Source: Gammaproteobacteria bacterium | GTDB taxonomy: Bacteria > Pseudomonadota > Gammaproteobacteria > Steroidobacterales > Rariloculaceae | Reading direction: 5' to 3' | Length of the DNA: 64,000 nucleotides | Assembly: GCA_050485645.1 (NCBI GenBank) | Contig: JBJHBT010000005.1 | Coordinates: forward strand, 1,062-65,061 | Shown here: positions 34,133 to 44,226 of the stretch, piece after piece | Layout: each line of letters begins with the position of its first letter | Position numbering within the stretch: position 1 is the first letter of the stretch | Position numbers and translations under genes: made by a program | The notes under the pieces: generated by a model | Database searches by the model: none | The model's input: only the letters and a program-made list of their open reading frames with translations | Told to the model about the DNA's origin: nothing

Positions 34133-36880
34133 TCATCCGGTGTTCTGCATGGCGTGGGCGATGCCGTTGACGCTCACCATCAGCGCCTGGAGCATGGCAT
34201 CGTCATTGCTTCCGGCACGTCGCCAGCGATCGAGCAGATCCACCTGCAGCTGGCTCATCGGGTCGACGTACGGATTGCGCAGCCGTATGGCGCGATTCAG
34301 CGTGTCGGCGCGTTCCAGCAGCTCGTTCTGTCCGGTCAGTTCCAGCACCAGCGAGACACAGCGGTCGTATTCGCCGCGTATCATCGGAAAGAAGCGCTCA
34401 TGCAGCGGACCGGCAAGCTCTGAGTAGCGTTCGGCGATGTCCAGATCCGCCTTGGCCAGCACCGATTCAACGTCGGAAACCAGTACGCGGAAGAAATACC
34501 AGTGTTCCAGCATCTCCTTCATGCGATCGACGCCGAACCGTTCCATGCCGTTGCCGATGCCGGCGGCGAAACCGTACCAGCCCGGCAGCATGCAGCGGTT
34601 CTGGGTCCATGCGAATACCCACGGAATCGCACGCATGTCTTCTATGGTTCGGCTGCCGGTGCGTGAAACCGGGCGCGAACCGATGTCCAGGCGCTCGATG
34701 ACGTCGATGGGGGTGGCATTGCGGAAATAACGCAGAAAGTCCTCGGTGTCGTATACCAGCTGTTTGTAGGCACGCCGGCTGCTGTCGGCCACGCACTGCA
34801 TCACCTCGATCCAGTCGGACTCGGAAGGATGCGGGTCCGGTGCGCGCGTGGTGACACGCAGCACGGCGCTCAGTGTCTGCTCCAGACTGCGTATTGCGAT
34901 GCCGCGCAGGCCGTACTTGGCATTGATCATTTCACCCTGCTCGGTCATGCGTAGCCGGCCGGCCACCGCGCCGGGCGGTGCGGCGAGCACCGCTTCGTGC
35001 AGGCGTCCGCCGCCGCGGCTGACCGTGCCGCCGCGGCCGTGGAAAAGCGTGAGCCGTACGCCCAGATCGTCCATGGTCTTTACCAGTGCCTGCTGCGCGC
35101 GCTGCAGTGACCAGCGTGCCGATACCAGTCCGCCATCCTTGTTGCTGTCCGAATAGCCGACCATCACCACCTGGTGGTTGCCGCGGGCCTCAAGATGCTG
35201 GCAGTAGTAATCATCGGCAAGCAGCGTCTGCATGATGCGCGAGGCGTTGTCGAGGTCGTCGACGGTTTCGAACAGCGGCGCCACGTCCAGCGGCACGACA
35301 CCGCCGCGCGGCCCCAGACCGCCCCATTTCGCCAGCAGCAGCACCGACAGCACGTCGTCGGGTCCGCGCGCCATGCTGATGATGTAGGGGCCTATCGCAT
35401 GGGCACCGTACTTGCGCCGGCAATGGGCGATGGCCTGGAACACGGCAAGTGTCCGCCGACCTTCCGAAGACAGGTCCGACTGCGGCGACTCGCGCCGCTC
35501 CAGCGCCTCCTTGAGCCGCGCGGTGCGGGCGCTGCTGCTCATGTCCAGCCAGCCGTCGATACTCAGCCCCTCGCCGATCACGCGGCGGTGCACCAGTGCG
35601 TTCTGGCGCACGTCCAGTGTCGCCATGTGGAAGCCGAAGGTCTGCGCACGGCGCAGCAGGCGCCTCACGGGAAACAGGCCCGCATTGCGTCCCTTGTTGG
35701 CGCGCAGGCTGTCGGCAATCAGCTCGATGTCGGCGATGAATTCCTCCGGCGACTCGTACGGAAAGGCGGTGTCGTCGTAGGTGGCCTGGAGGCGCGCCTG
35801 GATCAGGCGCAGGAATACCCGGTACGGCATCCGGCGATGCCGCGCGGGTACGGCATGCGCGGCCTTCGGGAAATGCCCCGCATAGAGTGCCGTGCGGCGC
35901 GACAGTTCTTCGCTGATGCCGACACGGGTGTCACTCAGGCTGAGGTGGTCGGCCAGATTGCGGCATTCGCGGAAGTAGCGCTCCAGCGCCAGGGCACGGT
36001 GGCGGGCCAGCGTCTCGCGGATGCTCTTGGCGGTGACATTGGGATTGCCGTCCATGTCGCCGCCCACCCACGACGAGAAGCGCAACAGGATGGGCAGGCG
36101 GATCAGGCTGCCGCCGTCGGGGAAGGTTGCGGCGAGCGCGTCCTCCAGCGCCTCGTAGAACGGCGGCACCATCCGGTACAGCACATCGGTGAGGAAGAAC
36201 AGCACGTGTTCGGCCTCATCACCCAGCGCCATGCGTTCGCCGGGATGTTCCTCGGTCTGCCAGCCGGTAGTCATCTCCAGCCGGATCTGGCCCAGGGTCG
36301 ACGCCGTTTCCTGCGGCGTCATGTAAGGGTCCAGCATCTGCACCAGGCTGCGGGCGATGTTCTGCTGCTTGCGCAGCAGCGTGCGGCGCGTCGCCTCGGT
36401 GGGGTGTGCGGTGAACACCGGCTCCACGGAAACCGAGTTCAGTGCGCGTTCGATCTCGTCCACACCAACGCCTTCGTCACGCAGCTTCTGCAGCACGTCG
36501 AGGAAGCCGAAAGGCTGATTGCTGCCCTCGTCGCGCAGGTAGGCACGGCGACGGCGTATGCGGTGCACCTTTTCGGCGATGTTGACCATCTGGAAGTACG
36601 TGGAGAACGCACGAATGAAATCACGCGCGGTGCTGGGCTGAAGCGCGGCGAGCAGGGTACGCATGGTCGCGAAGGCACCCTGTTCGCCTTCCCGATGGGC
36701 GATCGATGCCCGTCGAGCCGCCTCGACGAGGTCGAACAGCGCTTCGCCGCCCTGTTCGCGCACCAGCTCGCCGACAAGCTGCCCGAGGCGGTGCACGTCT
36801 TCGCGCAGCGCGCGGTCTTTTTCCGCGAACACGATGTGTTCACGCTGAATCGGAGTTGAACCCGATTTGCTGCCTGGCAT
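34133..36880 (-). CDS. ppc: phosphoenolpyruvate carboxylase
   Basis: VFTAHPTE, MVGYSDSNKDGG, FHGRGGTVSRGGG motifs and C-terminal QNTG. Start trimmed from 37069 to ATG 36880 (GGAGAA upstream). Confidence 0.95.
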   Translation of the reverse strand: MPGSKSGSTPIQREHIVFAEKDRALREDVHRLGQLVGELVREQGGEALFDLVEAARRASIAHREGEQGAFATMRTLLAALQPSTARDFIRAFSTYFQMVNIAEKVHRIRRRRAYLRDEGSNQPFGFLDVLQKLRDEGVGVDEIERALNSVSVEPVFTAHPTEATRRTLLRKQQNIARSLVQMLDPYMTPQETASTLGQIRLEMTTGWQTEEHPGERMALGDEAEHVLFFLTDVLYRMVPPFYEALEDALAATFPDGGSLIRLPILLRFSSWVGGDMDGNPNVTAKSIRETLARHRALALERYFRECRNLADHLSLSDTRVGISEELSRRTALYAGHFPKAAHAVPARHRRMPYRVFLRLIQARLQATYDDTAFPYESPEEFIADIELIADSLRANKGRNAGLFPVRRLLRRAQTFGFHMATLDVRQNALVHRRVIGEGLSIDGWLDMSSSARTARLKEALERRESPQSDLSSEGRRTLAVFQAIAHCRRKYGAHAIGPYIISMARGPDDVLSVLLLAKWGGLGPRGGVVPLDVAPLFETVDDLDNASRIMQTLLADDYYCQHLEARGNHQVVMVGYSDSNKDGGLVSARWSLQRAQQALVKTMDDLGVRLTLFHGRGGTVSRGGGRLHEAVLAAPPGAVAGRLRMTEQGEMINAKYGLRGIAIRSLEQTLSAVLRVTTRAPDPHPSESDWIEVMQCVADSSRRAYKQLVYDTEDFLRYFRNATPIDVIERLDIGSRPVSRTGSRTIEDMRAIPWVFAWTQNRCMLPGWYGFAAGIGNGMERFGVDRMKEMLEHWYFFRVLVSDVESVLAKADLDIAERYSELAGPLHERFFPMIRGEYDRCVSLVLELTGQNELLERADTLNRAIRLRNPYVDPMSQLQVDLLDRWRRAGSNDDAMLQALMVSVNGIAHAMQNTG

Positions 36881-37013
36881 TGATGGTTCTCCGGGACACC
36901 TGTTCGCGGTGTCAGTCGGCACTGATCCCTGTGGCCGGACAGCCAAGCCTCCGCGCGCACCGGCGGATCTGTCAAGCCCGGTGCGCGAACCGGTTCGCCT
37001 GTGCGCCGCGCGC

Positions 37014-37042
37014 TTGACCGCGGCAGGAGCCACGGACATACT
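37014..37042 (+). promoter_or_regulatory. candidate sigma70 promoter of the trp operon
   Basis: TTGACC (37014-37019), 17-nt spacer, CATACT (37037-37042). The predicted start site falls within a few nt of the leader-peptide ATG at 37051. Confidence 0.35.
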
Positions 37043-37050
37043 TTCCAGCG

Positions 37051-37137
37051 ATGAGCGCGCAACCCGCAATTGGCCCGGCAGTTTACGATTCCACGCATCG
37101 CTGGTGGCGCAGCCGCCTGCGCATACGAAGAGGGTAA
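37051..37137 (+). CDS. trpL: trp operon leader peptide (28 codons, tandem Trp codons)
   Basis: Hand-found, below the ORF-track size cutoff. ATG AGC GCG CAA CCC GCA ATT GGC CCG GCA GTT TAC GAT TCC ACG CAT CGC TGG TGG CGC AGC CGC CTG CGC ATA CGA AGA GGG TAA = MSAQPAIGPAVYDSTHRWWRSRLRIRRG. It is the only in-frame start after the TGA at 37015. Lies directly upstream of the terminator and trpE. Confidence 0.7.
   Translation: MSAQPAIGPAVYDSTHRWWRSRLRIRRG
37107..37135 (+). promoter_or_regulatory. attenuator control segments: GC hairpin after the Trp codons and antiterminator arm
   Basis: GCGCAG-ccgc-CTGCGC hairpin at 37107-37122. CGAAGAGGGT (37126-37135, overlapping the leader stop codon) can pair with ACCC(a)TCTTCG at 37185-37195: 10 bp with one bulge. 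That pairing competes with the terminator stem. Confidence 0.55.
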
Positions 37138-37184
37138 AGCGCGCCTACACGGGATCCGGAACATCCGTCTCGACCACATCGCAG

Positions 37185-37222
37185 ACCCATCTTCGCGCAA
37201 CGGAGATGGGTTTTTTTGTTTT
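37185..37222 (+). terminator. Rho-independent attenuator terminator upstream of trpE
   Basis: ACCCATCTTCG - cgcaa - CGGAGATGGGT (11 bp including one GU) followed by TTTTTTGTTTT. Lies 60 nt upstream of the trpE ATG. Confidence 0.8.
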
Positions 37223-37281
37223 CGGGGCGGGAATTCGCCGACAGGGCGATTCGCGAAAGACGACCCGCGGGACATGAACAG

Positions 37282-38666
<1,385 letters not shown>

Positions 38667-38670
<4 letters not shown>

Positions 38671-39332
38671 GCGTTCGGCTGCTGCTGATCGACAATTACG
38701 ATTCGTTCACTTACAACCTGGTGCAGGCATTTCTGGTGCTGGGGGCGGACGTGATCGTGTATCGCAACGATGCGATCAGCGTTGCCGAAGCGCAGGCGCT
38801 GGCGCCCACGCATCTGGTGATTTCCCCGGGGCCTGGCCGGCCCGCCGATGCCGGTGTCTCGCTGGACATGATCCGGGCGTTTGCCGGGCAGGTGCCGGTG
38901 CTGGGCGTCTGCCTGGGTCACCAGAGCATCGTCGAGGCCTTCGGTGGCGTGGTGGTGTCGGCGGCGGAACTGATGCACGGCAAAACCTCGCTGGTGCATC
39001 ACGACGGCGAGGGCCTGTTCCGCGGTCTGCCCGATCCCTGTGAGGTGGGTCGCTATCACTCGCTGGCCGCGCAGCGCGATCGCGTGCCGGATACGCTGGT
39101 CGTCACCGCACGCACCGAAGCCGGTGAGATCATGGGGGTGCGTCACCGTGAACATGCGGTGGCGGGTGTGCAGTTTCACCCCGAGAGCGTGCTTTCGCCG
39201 GACGGGCCACGGCTGCTGGCCAATTTTCTCTATCCGGATGAGTCGCATGATCCGGATGCGACGCGGGATGCGGGACAAACTCCGGCACGCAGCCCGGGCC
39301 GCCTGCTGATGGCCGATGAGGTGACGCGATGA
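38667..39332 (+). CDS. trpG: anthranilate synthase component II (glutamine amidotransferase)
   Basis: [24 protein letters not shown] (catalytic Cys), FHPES. 4-nt overlap with trpE stop. Confidence 0.93.
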
Positions 39333-40372
39333 GTTCGGAACGACGCGACAGCACCGTGTCAGGTTCAGCGCTGCTGGAGCGCCTGCTGTGCGGCACGGAT
39401 CTGGAAGAGGCGCAGGCGGCGGAACTGCTGCGGGCGATGGCCGGTGGAAGTCTGGCGCCGGCACTGGCTGGCGCGATACTGGCGGCGTTGCGCGCCAAGG
39501 GTGAGCAGCCGGCCGAGATCCGGGGCTTTGCCACCGCGATGCGGGCGCTGGCACGGCGGCCGGAGATTCCGCCCGGCCAGCTGTGCGTGGATATCGTCGG
39601 TACCGGTGGCGACGGCTCGGGCAGTCTGAATCTGTCCACGGGCGCGGCACTGCTGGCCGCTGCCGCCGGCGTGCCGGTGGTCAAGCACGGCAACCGCTCG
39701 GTATCCAGTCGCTGCGGCAGTGCCGATGTGCTCGCTGCGTTGGGCCTGCCGCTGCCGCTGGATGAGCAGCAGGCCGGCAGGGCCTTCGCCAGCCTGGGTT
39801 TTACTTTCCTGTTCGCTCCGCATTATCACCCGGCGATGAAAGAGATCGCGCCGGTGCGCGCGGCGCTGGGTGTGCGCACGGTATTCAACATCCTCGGGCC
39901 GCTGACGAACCCTGCCGCACCGCCGTTTCTCGTGGTCGGCGCGTTCAGTGAGGCCGTGGCGTCACTGATGGCCAGAACGCTGGCGGGCATGCCGATCCGG
40001 CGTGCGTTCGTGATCCACGGCGAGGGCGGCTGGGATGAGGCGACACCGGCGGGTCCCTTCGTCCGTTTCGATGTACGCGATGGCGACGTACAGCGCGTCG
40101 TTCGCGATCCATCCGACTACGGCGTCGCTCGCTGCGCGCTCGAGGATCTGCACGGCGGTGACGCCGAGCTCAACGCGGCGCGGCTGCGCGCTGCGCTGAA
40201 CGGCCAGGACACGCAGGCGCATCGCGACGCGCTGGTGTTGGCGGCTGCGCTGGCACTGGAAGTGACCGGCTCGACGCCCGACCCGCGTGAGGCGGCGAAT
40301 CGCGCCCGTCAGGCCATCGACAGCGGCGCCGCCGGGCAGCTGGTGGCCCGGCTGCCGGCGGCCGCCGGGTAG
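39329..40372 (+). CDS. trpD: anthranilate phosphoribosyltransferase
   Basis: [48 protein letters not shown] is the TrpD signature. ATGA overlap with trpG. Confidence 0.95.
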
Positions 40373-40378
40373 GCGCGC

Positions 40379-41236
40379 GTGAGCCCCGGGACATTTCTGC
40401 AGCGCATGGCACAGGGCAGCCGTGCGCGCGTGCGCGCCGCGCGCGCGCATGAGGCCGAGGCTGCGCTGTCGGCGCGCGCCGTCGACACGCCGCCGCCGCC
40501 GCCGCTGATACTGGGCGAGTTCGACCTGATCGCGGAACTCAAGCTGCGCTCTCCGGCGGCCGGGCAGCTGGCAGCGGGCAGCTTCGATCGCGATGCGCAG
40601 ATCGAAGCTTACGCCCGCGCCGGCGCGGCGGCCGTATCCGTGCTGACGGAGCCTGATGAATTCCGGGGCAGTCTCGATCACCTGCGTGAAGCGGCCGCGC
40701 TGCTCGCACCGCATCAGGTGCCGGTGATGCGCAAGGATTTCCTCACCGATCCCTACCAGGTGCTGGAAGCCCGCGCCGCGGGTGCCGGCGGTGTGCTGAT
40801 CATCGTTGCGATGCTCGACGACGGCGAGATTGCGGAACTGCTCGCGGCGGCACGCGATTGCGGCCTGTTCGCGCTGCTGGAGGCATTCGACCGCGACGAC
40901 CTGGAACGCATTGCGAAGCTGGCCGATGCGGGCGGCACGTATCCGGCAGGTCTTCTCGTCGGCGTGAACTGTCGCGATCTCAAGGATCTCAGTGTCAGCT
41001 TCGACCGTTTTGCGACGCTGGCCCCGCATCTGCCGCCCGATCTGCCGGCCGTGGCCGAGAGTGGTGTACGTGGCGCCGACGACATCCGCACGGTGGCCGG
41101 ACTGGGCTACCGCCTGGCGCTGGTAGGTTCGGCGCTGATGCGACAGGCGGACCCGGCCGCCGCGGCAGCTGGGCTGATCGCGGCCGGGCGTGATGATTCG
41201 GTGCGCCGTATCGGCAAGGGGGCGCAGTGTTTGTAA
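40379..41236 (+). CDS. trpC: indole-3-glycerol phosphate synthase
   Basis: LIAELKLRSP, SVLTEPDEFRGS, PVMRKDFLTDPYQVLEARAAGA, VNCRDL, AESG motifs. Confidence 0.93.
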   Translation: MSPGTFLQRMAQGSRARVRAARAHEAEAALSARAVDTPPPPPLILGEFDLIAELKLRSPAAGQLAAGSFDRDAQIEAYARAGAAAVSVLTEPDEFRGSLDHLREAAALLAPHQVPVMRKDFLTDPYQVLEARAAGAGGVLIIVAMLDDGEIAELLAAARDCGLFALLEAFDRDDLERIAKLADAGGTYPAGLLVGVNCRDLKDLSVSFDRFATLAPHLPPDLPAVAESGVRGADDIRTVAGLGYRLALVGSALMRQADPAAAAAGLIAAGRDDSVRRIGKGAQCL

Positions 41237-41820
41237 AGATCTGCGGGCTGCGCACACCGGAATCGCTGAAGGCCGCCGTGGCGGCAGGCGCCGATGCCGT
41301 CGGCTTCGTGTTTGCACCGTCGCCGCGTCGCGTTACGCCCGCAGAGGCGCGCGGGCTGTGTGCGGGATTGCCTGCTCACGTCGTCCGTGTGGCCGTGATG
41401 CGGCATCCGGCGATCGATGAGTGGCAGACGGTGCTGAAGGAGTTTGCGCCGGACTGGCTGCAGACCGATGCGGCGGATTTCGCTGCCATCGATCTGCCAT
41501 CCGGCTGTGAGGCATTGCCCGTGTATCGTAACGACGCGGTGCCCGAAGCCGATGCGCTGCCACCGCGGCTGCTGTTCGAAGGCGCGGTCAGCGGCAGTGG
41601 TCGGGTCGCGGACTGGGAACAGGCGGCGTCCGTTGCGGCCGCCACATCGCTGATGCTGGCAGGTGGCCTCACTGCCGACAATGTGGTCGACGCGATCCGC
41701 GTCGTCAGACCCTGGGGTGTGGATGTGTCCAGTGGCGTTGAACGTGAGCGCGGCCACAAGGATACCGGATTGATGGAGACGTTCATTGCCCGCGTACGGA
41801 CATTGGAGACAGCAGCATGA
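41227..41820 (+). CDS. trpF: phosphoribosylanthranilate isomerase
   Basis: MFVKICGLRTPESLKAAVAAGADAVGFVFAPSPRRV; 10-nt overlap with trpC. Confidence 0.92.
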   Translation: MFVKICGLRTPESLKAAVAAGADAVGFVFAPSPRRVTPAEARGLCAGLPAHVVRVAVMRHPAIDEWQTVLKEFAPDWLQTDAADFAAIDLPSGCEALPVYRNDAVPEADALPPRLLFEGAVSGSGRVADWEQAASVAAATSLMLAGGLTADNVVDAIRVVRPWGVDVSSGVERERGHKDTGLMETFIARVRTLETAA

Positions 41821-43085
41821 AATCACACAGCACCGGCGCGGCCGCGACGGATCAGGACAGCGAGCGCCTGCTCGACGAGCTGATCGCCGGCCGGCTGCCC
41901 GATGAGAACGGCCGCTTCGGCCCTTTTGGCGGGCGTTACGTACCGGAAACCCTGATCCCGGCCATCAACCGGCTGGTGGAAGGCGTACACGACATCCTGC
42001 CGTCCGCGGATTTTCAGGCCGCTCTTCGACAGGAACTGACCAGCTGGGTAGGTCGGCCCACTGCGCTGACGCGCGCGCGGCGGCTCGGCGAGCGCTGGGG
42101 CGCCGATGTGTGGCTGAAACGTGAGGATCTGGCCCACACCGGCGCGCACAAGATCAACAACACCATCGGCCAGGCGCTGCTGGCAAAGCAGCTCGGCGCG
42201 AAGCGGGTGGTGGCCGAGACCGGCGCCGGCCAGCATGGCGTGGCGTCGGCGGCTGCCTGCGCGCGCATCGGGCTGCCGTGCACGGTGTACATGGGCGAGG
42301 TCGACGTGCAGCGGCAGGCGCCGAATGTCGATCGCATGCGCCGGCTTGGTGCCGAGGTCGTCGCGGTCACCACCGGTGATCGCACGCTGCGCGCGGCGAT
42401 CGACGAGGCTATTCGCGACTGGGTGTCCGATCCCGAGGGCACCTACTATCTGCTCGGTTCGGCCATCGGCCCACATCCCTATCCGTATCTGGTACGTGAG
42501 CTGCAGGCGGTGATCGGTCGCGAGGCGCGTGCGCAGCTGCTGGAGCAGGGCGGGCTGCCGGACGCCGTGTTTGCATGTGTTGGCGGTGGCTCGAACGCGA
42601 TCGGTATTTTCCACGGTTTCCTCGCCGATCGTGAGGTGCAGCTGATCGGTGTTGAGGCTGGCGGCTGCGGCAGCGCGCTGGGCCAGCACTCGGCCACGCT
42701 CGCGGCCGGCAGGCCGGGTGTGCTTCACGGCACGTACACCATGCTGCTGTATGACGATGGCGGACAGATCCAGGAGACGCACTCGGTGTCCGCCGGCCTG
42801 GACTATCCGGGTGTGGGACCCGAGCACGCACTGCTCAAGGTCACCGGCAGGGCGCAGTACGTCACGGCGAGCGACGATGAAGCGCTGCAGGCACTGGGTG
42901 AATGCTGTGCACTGGAGGGCATATTGCCGGCACTGGAGTCCTCGCATGCACTGGCCGGCGCGCGCCGCTGGGCGCGGGAGTTCACAGGCAGGGGTACGCC
43001 GCGGGTGCTGATCGGTCTGTCCGGGCGCGGCGACAAGGACATGCCGATACTGAGCCGGTATCCGATAACGGGAGTGCAGCCATGA
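41817..43085 (+). CDS. trpB: tryptophan synthase beta chain
   Basis: GRFGPFGGRYVPETL, LKREDLAHTGAHKINN (PLP lysine), ETGAGQHGVA, GGGSNAIG. ATGA overlap with trpF. Confidence 0.96.
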   Translation: MKSHSTGAAATDQDSERLLDELIAGRLPDENGRFGPFGGRYVPETLIPAINRLVEGVHDILPSADFQAALRQELTSWVGRPTALTRARRLGERWGADVWLKREDLAHTGAHKINNTIGQALLAKQLGAKRVVAETGAGQHGVASAAACARIGLPCTVYMGEVDVQRQAPNVDRMRRLGAEVVAVTTGDRTLRAAIDEAIRDWVSDPEGTYYLLGSAIGPHPYPYLVRELQAVIGREARAQLLEQGGLPDAVFACVGGGSNAIGIFHGFLADREVQLIGVEAGGCGSALGQHSATLAAGRPGVLHGTYTMLLYDDGGQIQETHSVSAGLDYPGVGPEHALLKVTGRAQYVTASDDEALQALGECCALEGILPALESSHALAGARRWAREFTGRGTPRVLIGLSGRGDKDMPILSRYPITGVQP

Positions 43086-43864
43086 GTGACGCGATCGCGG
43101 CACGCGAGCGTCTGCGTCAGGCGATAGAGAGTGCCGAAGGTCCGGCGCTGGTGTCGTTCGTGACCGCCGGTTTTCCGGATCGCGAAGGATTCGCGACAAC
43201 GCTGCGAGCGGTGGCCGAGGTCTCCGATGCGGTGGAACTCGGCGTGCCGTTCAGTGACCCGATGGCGGATGGCGTGACGATCCAGCGCTCCAGCCGGCAG
43301 GCGATCGCGAATGGCGTGACGCTGGAATGGATACTGGAACTGCTGGCGTGCGAACGCCACCGCCTCGCCGCGCCGGTGTTGCTGTTCAGTTACCTGAACC
43401 CGCTGTTGGTGTATGGCTTCGAGCGACTGGCCGATCGTGCCGCCGAGGTTGGCGTCACCGGCTTCATCGTGCCTGATCTGCCCTACGAGGAAAGCGCGCC
43501 GTTTCGGGCCACGATCGCGCCGCGGGGGCTGGCCCTGGTGCAGCTCGTTACGCCAGCCACGCCCGAGCCGCGTCTGAAGATGTTGTGCGAGGCCAGCGAA
43601 GGATTCGTCTACGCAGTGACACGAACCGGCATCACCGGCGGACAGCAGGGACTGCCCCCTGAGCTGGCCGGCTACCTGCGGCGCGTGAAGGCGGCATCGG
43701 CGCTGCCGGTATGCGCGGGATTCGGCGTGCGCGAAGCAGCACAGGTGGAGCTCATCGGCCGTCACGCCGATGGCGTCATCGTCGGCTCGGCGCTGGTCGA
43801 AGTACTGGAACGCGGCGAGGATCCGGCCGCGTTCCTGCGCGCCTTGAAACCCGCCGTCACGTAG
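43082..43864 (+). CDS. trpA: tryptophan synthase alpha chain
   Basis: In-frame part of ORF 42902..43864 from ATG 43082 (ATGA overlap with trpB stop). VSFVTAGFPD, VELGVPFSDPMADGVTIQ, GFIVPDLP, GFGV motifs. Confidence 0.93.
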   Translation: MSDAIAARERLRQAIESAEGPALVSFVTAGFPDREGFATTLRAVAEVSDAVELGVPFSDPMADGVTIQRSSRQAIANGVTLEWILELLACERHRLAAPVLLFSYLNPLLVYGFERLADRAAEVGVTGFIVPDLPYEESAPFRATIAPRGLALVQLVTPATPEPRLKMLCEASEGFVYAVTRTGITGGQQGLPPELAGYLRRVKAASALPVCAGFGVREAAQVELIGRHADGVIVGSALVEVLERGEDPAAFLRALKPAVT

Positions 43865-43911: not shown

Positions 43912-44226
43912 ATGCGTCGGGTGTTTCGCAGCGAGTTTCTGGCCGAGGTGGGGCACTACCGCAATCTGCTGGAACAGGCAGGCATCCGCTGCATGATCCG
44001 CAACGACAAACTGTCGGGTGGGCTGGGCGAGATTCCGTTTCTGGAATGCCTGCCCGAACTGTGGGTGCTCGAAGACGGTGACTTCGATGCGGCGCAGGCA
44101 TTGATCGAAGACCAGAATGGCATGCCATCATCAGCCCGCGCGTGGCGCTGTGAGCGTTGCCGTGAATCGAACGAGCCGCAGTTCGCGGTATGCTGGCAAT
44201 GTGGCCATGCGGCACCGGAATTGTGA
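43912..44226 (+). CDS. DUF2007-like small protein with C-terminal CxxC...CxxC zinc ribbon
   Basis: Pattern LLEQAGIRCMIRN...PELWVLEDGDFDAAQALI resembles the putative signal-transducing DUF2007 fold. C-terminal RCERCRESNEPQFAVCWQCG. Confidence 0.55.
   Translation: MRRVFRSEFLAEVGHYRNLLEQAGIRCMIRNDKLSGGLGEIPFLECLPELWVLEDGDFDAAQALIEDQNGMPSSARAWRCERCRESNEPQFAVCWQCGHAAPEL

Follow-up and report, generated by a model that had tools for sequence, protein, structure and literature searches.

The trp Operon and Its Leader Region

The DNA examined here is a stretch of 64,000 nucleotides (nt) from contig JBJHBT010000005.1 of a gammaproteobacterial assembly (GCA_050485645.1; the whole stretch is called the window below). 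It carries seven tryptophan (Trp) biosynthesis genes, contiguous on one strand and in the pathway-operon order trpEGDCFBA, and the region ahead of trpE has the parts of a putative leader-peptide attenuator (Table 1). These comprise a promoter-like pair of hexamers, an ATG that opens a 28-codon open reading frame (ORF) with the codons UGG UGG, an antiterminator arm, and an intrinsic terminator with its U-run. Direct reading places each of them where a first-pass annotation, made by a model from the letters alone, had put it. The last T of the antiterminator arm (segment 2) is also the first base of the leader stop codon, and the Trp codons lie 19–24 nt 5′ of this segment.

The genes themselves are tightly packed. 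As had been described, five junctions overlap by 4–10 nt and trpD and trpC are separated by a 6-nt gap; the 4-nt overlaps (E/G, G/D, F/B, and B/A) have the form GTGA or ATGA. These overlaps suggest that trpEGDCFBA is co-transcribed, and its genes would also be translationally coupled.

Table 1. Elements of the trp leader and genes of the trp operon, in order along the window.
Feature	Position	Strand	Basis or remark
-35 hexamer of the trp promoter, TTGACC	37014–37019	+	TTGAC(G/C) kept in relatives
-10 hexamer, CATACT	37037–37042	+	(C/G)ATACT kept in most relatives
Predicted transcription start, 7th–9th nt past the -10 hexamer	37049–37051	+	promoter geometry; would give a 5′ untranslated region of 0–2 nt
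Leader peptide ORF (trpL-like), 28 codons, MSAQPAIGPAVYDSTHRWWRSRLRIRRG, TAA at 37135–37137	37051–37137	+	sequence; short WW/WWW ORFs in the same place in relatives
5′-terminal patch GCGCGC-A-ACCC, possible anti-antiterminator	37055–37065	+	predicted pairing with 37132–37144; tentative
Hairpin P1, equivalent of the 1:2/pause hairpin	37094–37127	+	minimum-free-energy fold of the naked leader
Tandem regulatory Trp codons UGG UGG	37102–37107	+	sequence; columns 13–21 of alignments A1 and A2 nearly invariant
Segment 2, antiterminator 5′ arm, CGAAGAGGGT	37126–37135	+	mimics the terminator 3′ arm
Spacer hairpin between segments 2 and 3	37150–37172	+	fold; sequence kept in L161 and L162
Segment 3, terminator 5′ arm shared with the antiterminator; core ACCCATCTTCG at 37185–37195	37183–37195	+	
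Segment 4, terminator 3′ arm, CGGAGATGGGTTT	37201–37213	+	
U-run of the intrinsic terminator, T7-G-T4	37211–37222	+	sequence
trpE, anthranilate synthase component I, ATG start	37282–38670	+	NCBIfam; homologues align from residue 1
trpG, GTG start	38667–39332	+	NCBIfam; 4-nt overlap with trpE
trpD	39329–40372	+	NCBIfam; ATGA, 4-nt overlap with trpG
trpC, GTG start	40379–41236	+	NCBIfam; 6-nt gap after trpD
trpF, GTG start	41227–41820	+	NCBIfam; 10-nt overlap with trpC
trpB	41817–43085	+	NCBIfam; ATGA, 4-nt overlap with trpF
trpA	43082–43864	+	NCBIfam; ATGA, 4-nt overlap with trpB

Conservation of the Leader Among Relatives

Relatives were gathered by a translated TrpE search of species-representative genomes and of metagenomes, and by a protein search with contig look-ups (labels such as L082 denote individual sequences of the comparison). 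The sample comprises at least 34 further distinct leaders upstream of trpE, at 58–85% TrpE identity, and the named sources are Steroidobacteraceae, Woeseia, unclassified gammaproteobacterial metagenome-assembled genomes and one contig binned as Acidimicrobiia. Among the genome and metagenome matches listed the best TrpE match was 74% identical; the protein search gave closer relatives, at 84–85%. Alignment A1 contains 29 sequences and the covariance model R1 was built from 35 leaders.

The same layout recurs in all 34 further leaders. Each has an ORF of 14–31 codons with WW, WWW, or W-x-W, a segment 2 resembling GGAG(T/A)GGG that mimics the terminator 3′ arm, and a terminator with the pattern ACCCATCTCCG...CGGAGATGGGT and a T-run behind it. 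Little of the peptide is conserved beyond R-W-W(W)-R. Segments 2 to 4, whose CCC and GG columns are invariant, show unusually strong conservation over the full range of TrpE identity. The gene upstream of the leader varies: it is ppc (phosphoenolpyruvate carboxylase) in L161–L163, and other loci have a CitMHS transporter gene or genes unrelated to these. Loss of the leader ORF and of the pairing arms in relatives had been named beforehand as a finding that would speak against attenuation; the outcome was the opposite, as both are conserved.

The order E-G-D-C-F(-B) is likewise kept as far as the contig of each relative extends, and a 5.45-Mb contig (L170) shows the complete E-G-D-C-F-B-A followed by a gene of the DUF2007 family. 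Since relatives share them, operon and leader alike characterize the clade and are not a peculiarity of this genome. The first-pass annotation had listed the undivided seven-gene operon as an unusual feature; the operon is present as described, but it is common to the relatives.

One relative departs from this layout. Proteobacteria bacterium DTSAM18 (L013, 64% TrpE identity) has trpE-G-D-C, and between positions 2550 and 3000, upstream of its trpE, we found no recognisable promoter, leader ORF, or terminator, but just a TGGTGGTGG string in an unclear frame. Lacking a recognisable leader, this sequence was left out of the alignments.

Alternative Pairings of Segments 2, 3, and 4

The terminator of the window is a 13-bp stem of 37183–37195 with 37201–37213 (-19.5 kcal/mol). 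In A1, 94% of its cells are paired and both sides change in six of the 11 pairs. Covariation is well above chance, since no shuffle among 500 came up to the observed value on four of five measures, and on the fifth 3/500 did. Paired cells fall to 32–55% when the register is slid, and RNAalifold, run unguided, predicts the same terminator helix.

The antiterminator arm had been proposed to pair with 37185–37195, and it does so through 10 bp with one bulged A (-14.9 kcal/mol). In all 29 leaders the upstream sequence that pairs best with segment 3 overlaps segment 2, and 81% of antiterminator cells are paired by alignment column. The 2:3 helix was retested, independently of register, by per-sequence duplex energies and a permutation of cognate against non-cognate arms. 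Cognate duplexes average -15.6 kcal/mol versus -14.0 kcal/mol for non-cognate ones, and none of 5000 permutations was as good. The compensation is visible in individual sequences, for example GAAGAGGG with CCCATCTTC in the window, GAGGTGG with CCACCTC in L014, GGAACGGG with CCCGTCTCC in L084, and GGAGGTGG with CCGCCTCC in L092. Together with the Trp-codon ORF, segments 2, 3, and 4 and the terminator, all kept in the 34 further leaders, these compensatory changes support the classical attenuation that had been put forward.

At least five of the nine nt of segment 2 pair locally (1:2) with the stretch just past the Trp codons in 23 of the 29 leaders. The stop codon takes one of two places: in the loop of the 1:2 hairpin, just 5′ of segment 2 (e.g., L003 and L082), or shortly past segment 2 (the window, L001, L161, L162, and others). 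With either layout, segment 2 would be masked by a terminating ribosome.

Folding of the Window Leader

The leader of the window is more stably folded than its shuffled versions (z = -2.5). In the naked leader hairpin P1 takes in the Trp codons with its 5′ arm, and its 3′ end extends to the first two bases of segment 2; analogous hairpins, including or following the Trp codons, were found in relatives. A smaller GC hairpin (GCGCAG-CCGC-CTGCGC, 37107–37122) had been reported at this place, and although it can be formed, the minimum-free-energy fold uses the larger, overlapping 37094–37127 instead. The local 1:2 pairing of the window is unlike the hairpin of most relatives (CACTCC-TGA-GGAGTG); the window has P1 and a possible 5′ helix in its place.

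That 5′ helix is a long-range pairing of 37055–37065 with 37132–37144, in which the GGGT of segment 2 and the downstream GCGCGC pair with nt 5–15 of the transcript (GCGCGC-A-ACCC with GGGT-AAA-GCGCGC). P1 and this helix together sequester seven of the 10 nt of segment 2 in the naked fold, and the terminator is formed. The same pairing is predicted in L162 and L164. Covariation is weak and could not confirm the helix, since these two share almost the same sequence. In this model the 5′-terminal patch may serve as an anti-antiterminator responsive to ribosomes loading at the 5′ end.

Constrained folds gave the alternatives expected of an attenuator, for which ribosome footprint sizes were assumed from Escherichia coli. 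The 2:3 helix appears in the minimum-energy fold when the Trp codons are occupied by a ribosome and the RNA ends with segment 3; when the ribosome is moved to the stop codon, or left out and the leader folded at full length, the terminator forms. The comparison of alternative folds that had been suggested thus agrees with a switch set by ribosome position.

Promoter Geometry and the Start of the Leader ORF

The two promoter hexamers are 17 nt apart on direct reading of the sequence, and the leader ATG at 37051, the first start codon past an in-frame stop, comes 8 nt after the -10 hexamer. TTGACC-17-CATACT is the sole promoter-like site in 36500–37600, where 0.1 are expected from shuffles. It is also, over the 64 kb on both strands, the sole promoter-like motif with an ATG or GTG 4–11 nt downstream that begins an ORF of 10 or more amino acids. 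A promoter was seen in all 33 further leaders with enough upstream sequence (L082 ends at a contig edge, so that just its -10 hexamer is visible). It consists of TTGAC(G/C), a spacer of 17–18 nt and a -10 hexamer that is mostly (C/G)ATACT.

The distance from the -10 hexamer to the ATG is 5–10 nt in 35/35 leaders (the window and its relatives). This gap leaves no space for a Shine-Dalgarno sequence, and no such motif precedes the leader ATG. Of GGAG, GAGG, and AGGA, none occurs in the 8 nt that separate the leader ATG of the window from the -10 hexamer, which bears out the earlier remark that this ATG lacks a Shine-Dalgarno sequence. In contrast, the divergent ppc has GGAGAA 7 nt 5′ of its ATG and the internal trp genes have G-rich stretches ahead of their starts. 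The leader start codon is ATG in every one of the 35 leaders; GTG starts three of the seven trp genes of the window operon. Bacterial RNA polymerase usually initiates 6–9 nt past the -10 hexamer, so a 5′ untranslated region of about 0–3 nt is predicted. The leader messenger RNA (mRNA) is probably leaderless or near-leaderless, judging from this geometry, and its constancy in all 35 leaders lends support to the near-leaderless start that had been suggested for the window.

Alternatively, the same attenuator could sit on a leadered transcript, either starting farther upstream in the 170-nt ppc–trp intergenic region or made from elsewhere because TTGAC...ATACT is not a promoter, with initiation at an internal AUG that has no Shine-Dalgarno sequence. 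The trp transcription start is indeed an inference; the promoter was called from its consensus match alone, and CATACT matches the -10 consensus at just four of six positions. However, the hexamers and their spacing to the ATG persist in the 35 leaders despite differing upstream genes (ppc, the CitMHS transporter gene, and others), and the sequence between the hexamers is not conserved, as expected of a promoter. The absence of a second promoter-like site in 36500–37600 also speaks against an upstream start, and a GC-rich region without a Shine-Dalgarno sequence would be a poor site for internal initiation. We thus consider a leadered transcript improbable, and a start at or near the leader AUG is the reading followed below.

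Comparison With Known trp Leaders

An Rfam scan of 36000–38500 of the window, at E-values up to 10, returned no Trp_leader (RF00513), T-box, or riboswitch, but just chance-level matches (frameshift elements and sucC). Searched against 13 relatives, RF00513 gave a single match, in L084 (28.6 bits, E = 0.087; the gathering score is 41). In the other direction, R1 matches the annotated Trp leader region of E. coli end to end (26.1 bits, E = 0.002, in a 0.5-Mb search). We do not regard the family of the window as a member of RF00513, because it stays below the Rfam gathering score and what is seen in both directions is a resemblance only. L082 (61–95) and E. coli trpL (L172, 401–445) do share the 18-nt TGGTGGCGCACTTCCTGA, from the Trp codons through the stop, and the peptide tail WWRTS is the same in both; the E. 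coli trpL sequence used was verified at 100% identity in 5,422 genomes. Given these matches, distant common descent with the E. coli trpL family is plausible.

The likeness to E. coli extends to the design of the leader, with a short peptide, tandem Trp codons followed by Arg, alternative 1:2, 2:3, and 3:4 hairpins, a segment 2 that mimics the terminator 3′ arm, and an intrinsic terminator ahead of trpE in a whole-pathway operon. Differences lie in the ATG placed 5–10 nt past the -10 hexamer and in the promoter spacer, in which comparison of the leaders found no conserved operator-like sequence. Unlike that of E. coli, the operon of the window has neither a trpG-D nor a trpC-F gene fusion, and its TrpE is of the non-enteric "trpE_most" type (TIGR00564, 469 bits, versus 259 bits for the enteric "trpE_proteo," TIGR00565).

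Leaderless trp leaders, which the first-pass annotation had counted among the less standard features, are supported in the window but have already been documented in other bacteria. The ATG of trpL forms the 5′ end of the rnTrpL transcript in Sinorhizobium meliloti (PMC7298713; PMC6614838). This is also a leaderless proteobacterial Trp leader-peptide attenuator, with a promoter that is not repressed. It belongs to an alphaproteobacterium, however, and controls just trpE(G), with the other trp genes in separate operons, and roles in trans have been demonstrated for it. TrpL1 of Streptomyces lividans (MFAHSTRNWWWTAHPAAH; ...NWWWT...) is transcribed leaderless (PMC8079986), and transcription of the leader peptide of Deinococcus deserti trpEGD starts 1 nt before the start codon (PMC4007540). 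Both resemble the window in having a WWW or WW leader ORF without a 5′ untranslated region, then hairpins and a U-stretch upstream of trpE, but they come from phyla in which leaderless mRNAs are common genome-wide, whereas the window shows this geometry at the trp leader only. Among Gammaproteobacteria, Pseudomonas aeruginosa controls trpE and trpGDC by attenuation at trpL1 and trpL2 (RWRWRA), backed by codon substitutions, and the paper does not mention leaderless transcripts (PMC13434334). It shares Trp-codon leader peptides with the window, but its trp genes form several units, each with its own leader, and its Trp codons alternate instead of standing in tandem.

WW or WWW leader ORFs were also seen upstream of trpE in six more distant sequences (L037, L047, L057, L114, L115, and L140, from Thermodesulfobacteriota, Binataceae, Rhodothermaceae, and unassigned metagenome contigs). 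Their ATG lies 7–10 nt past a promoter-like pair with 17–18 nt spacing, mostly TTGACA and TAnnnT. Weak matches of R1 (15–27 bits) fall just upstream of trpE in L066, L057, L033, L037, and L043. Leaderless trp leaders may, on such sequence patterns, be widespread.

Proposed Mechanism and Alternative Explanations

We propose that the leader is a ribosome-mediated transcription attenuator of the E. coli trp type, carried on a leaderless or near-leaderless leader mRNA and controlling the coupled trpEGDCFBA. For classical leader-peptide attenuation itself our confidence is high, for the leaderless start it is moderate, and the proposal as a whole is probably correct. Transcription from TTGACC-17-CATACT would begin at or within ~2 nt of the leader AUG, and therefore the peptide would be made from an mRNA with little or no 5′ leader and no Shine-Dalgarno sequence. 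With ample charged tRNA-Trp, the ribosome would pass UGG UGG to the UAA at 37135–37137 and, given a footprint like that in E. coli, cover segment 2 (37126–37135). Segment 3 would then pair with segment 4, and RNA polymerase would terminate at the U-run near 37222. When tRNA-Trp is scarce, a ribosome stalled at 37102–37107 would melt P1 and leave segment 2 free to pair with segment 3 before segment 4 is made, so that no terminator forms and transcription would continue into trpE. If no ribosome loads, segment 2 would be sequestered by P1 and the 5′-terminal patch, and termination would therefore be the default.

Several observations sit less easily with this proposal. A gap of 8–10 nt from the -10 hexamer to the ATG may leave the mRNA with a leader of 1–3 nt, a length that lowers leaderless initiation in E. 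coli. The column-wise covariation of the 2:3 helix is modest, and 251 of 500 shuffles match it in the number of further pair types; this weakness is attributable to the high conservation of the arms and to one-base shifts of register (CCCATTCC versus CCCATCTCC). The local 1:2 pairing of the window touches just three of the nine nt of segment 2. In addition, a ribosome stalled at the Trp codons leaves the 5′-terminal pairing with segment 2 uncovered, and unless another ribosome is queued up behind it, this pairing could thus be in competition with the antiterminator. Finally, the terminator (-19.5 kcal/mol) would win over the antiterminator (-14.9 kcal/mol) at equilibrium, and the switch must therefore be kinetic, as in E. 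coli.

A further possibility, compatible with attenuation, is that the terminated leader RNA of ~170 nt, or its peptide, additionally acts in trans. There is a precedent in rnTrpL/peTrpL of S. meliloti, itself a leaderless trp attenuator (PMC6614838; PMC7298713), and the strong conservation of segments 2–4, with their invariant CCC/GG columns at 58–85% TrpE identity, would fit an additional role of the RNA. The peptide, however, keeps little beyond R-W-W(W)-R. The known target of S. meliloti rnTrpL is a separate trpDC operon, a logic that does not carry over to the window, where all trp genes form a single operon; we regard an additional function in trans as quite unlikely. Very unlikely indeed is a terminator that is constitutive or controlled by a protein, tRNA, or small molecule, blind to ribosome position and with the short ORF incidental: translation of the ORF is a prediction and no Rfam model fits the leader, which would allow for an undescribed RNA class, but in 35/35 leaders an in-frame run of Trp codons and an ATG at a fixed distance from the promoter are kept while the remaining peptide varies, the stop codon always lies just before or shortly after segment 2, where a terminating ribosome would cover it, and neither the window nor the relatives scanned gave an Rfam match to a T-box, a TRAP-type repeat, or a riboswitch.

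Attenuation on a leaderless or near-leaderless mRNA can also be combined with the remaining observations into a broader picture, which we offer tentatively and consider doubtful when taken in all its parts. Trp attenuation would be obligatorily leaderless throughout a broad uncultured gammaproteobacterial clade (Steroidobacteraceae, Woeseia, and relatives), with the AUG loaded by a ribosome directly as it leaves RNA polymerase. Complementarity between the first 15 nt of the transcript and both the 3′ half of segment 2 and its flanking bases, as in the sub-branch of the window, would let loading at the 5′ end, or a queued second ribosome, decide the outcome jointly with stalling at the Trp codons. 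Leaderless trpL would be widespread and possibly the older state, and the resemblance to E. coli trpL would reflect common descent.

The attenuation mechanism is textbook and leaderless trpL is known elsewhere, so that the understanding of attenuation is unchanged by this leader. What is new is an attenuator sequence family whose leaderless geometry is conserved clade-wide in Gammaproteobacteria, and it is this, together with the hints of a like geometry in other phyla, that merits attention. For a lineage represented almost entirely by metagenomes, the family supplies a small leader ORF and a well-supported regulatory element that had not been annotated, and it demonstrates that a complete trp pathway operon under an attenuator has been kept in a gammaproteobacterial clade that is not enteric. 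A new Rfam family could be started from the 35-sequence alignment and covariance model, or Trp_leader extended with them. As leaderless mRNAs are rare in Proteobacteria, the leader would also be a natural test case there for how a mechanism that relies on tight transcription–translation coupling operates when initiation is Shine-Dalgarno-independent.

Neighboring Genes and Additional Observations

The ppc gene lies on the minus strand (34133–36880, with its ATG at 36880), divergent from the trp leader. The ppc–trpL arrangement is kept in the closest relatives, L161–L163 (84% TrpE identity in L162 and L163), and in L170 ppc is found several genes farther upstream of trpE. Downstream of the operon, an ORF of 104 amino acids (43912–44226) starts 48 nt past trpA. 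No terminator-like site was detected between 43700 and 46500 of the window, and this ORF is probably co-transcribed with the trp operon. The gene in the corresponding position of L170 encodes the DUF2007 (PF09413) protein.

The contig binned as Acidimicrobiia (L014, JBAVPF010000031.1, 58% TrpE identity) carries the same gammaproteobacterial-type leader and operon, which reflects either a mis-binned contig or horizontal transfer.

With respect to the start of trpE, a longer ORF from the TTG at 37216 of the window was rejected, since this codon falls within the U-run of the terminator and the alignments to homologues begin at the ATG at 37282. In six relatives (L002, L012, L015, L093, L006, and L007) the trpE start codon comes just 5–10 nt past the T-run of the attenuator, with no space for a normally spaced Shine-Dalgarno sequence. 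Their sole GGAG-like motif is found in the terminator 3′ arm, ~15 nt upstream of trpE, a layout that may add translational control or coupling on top of attenuation.

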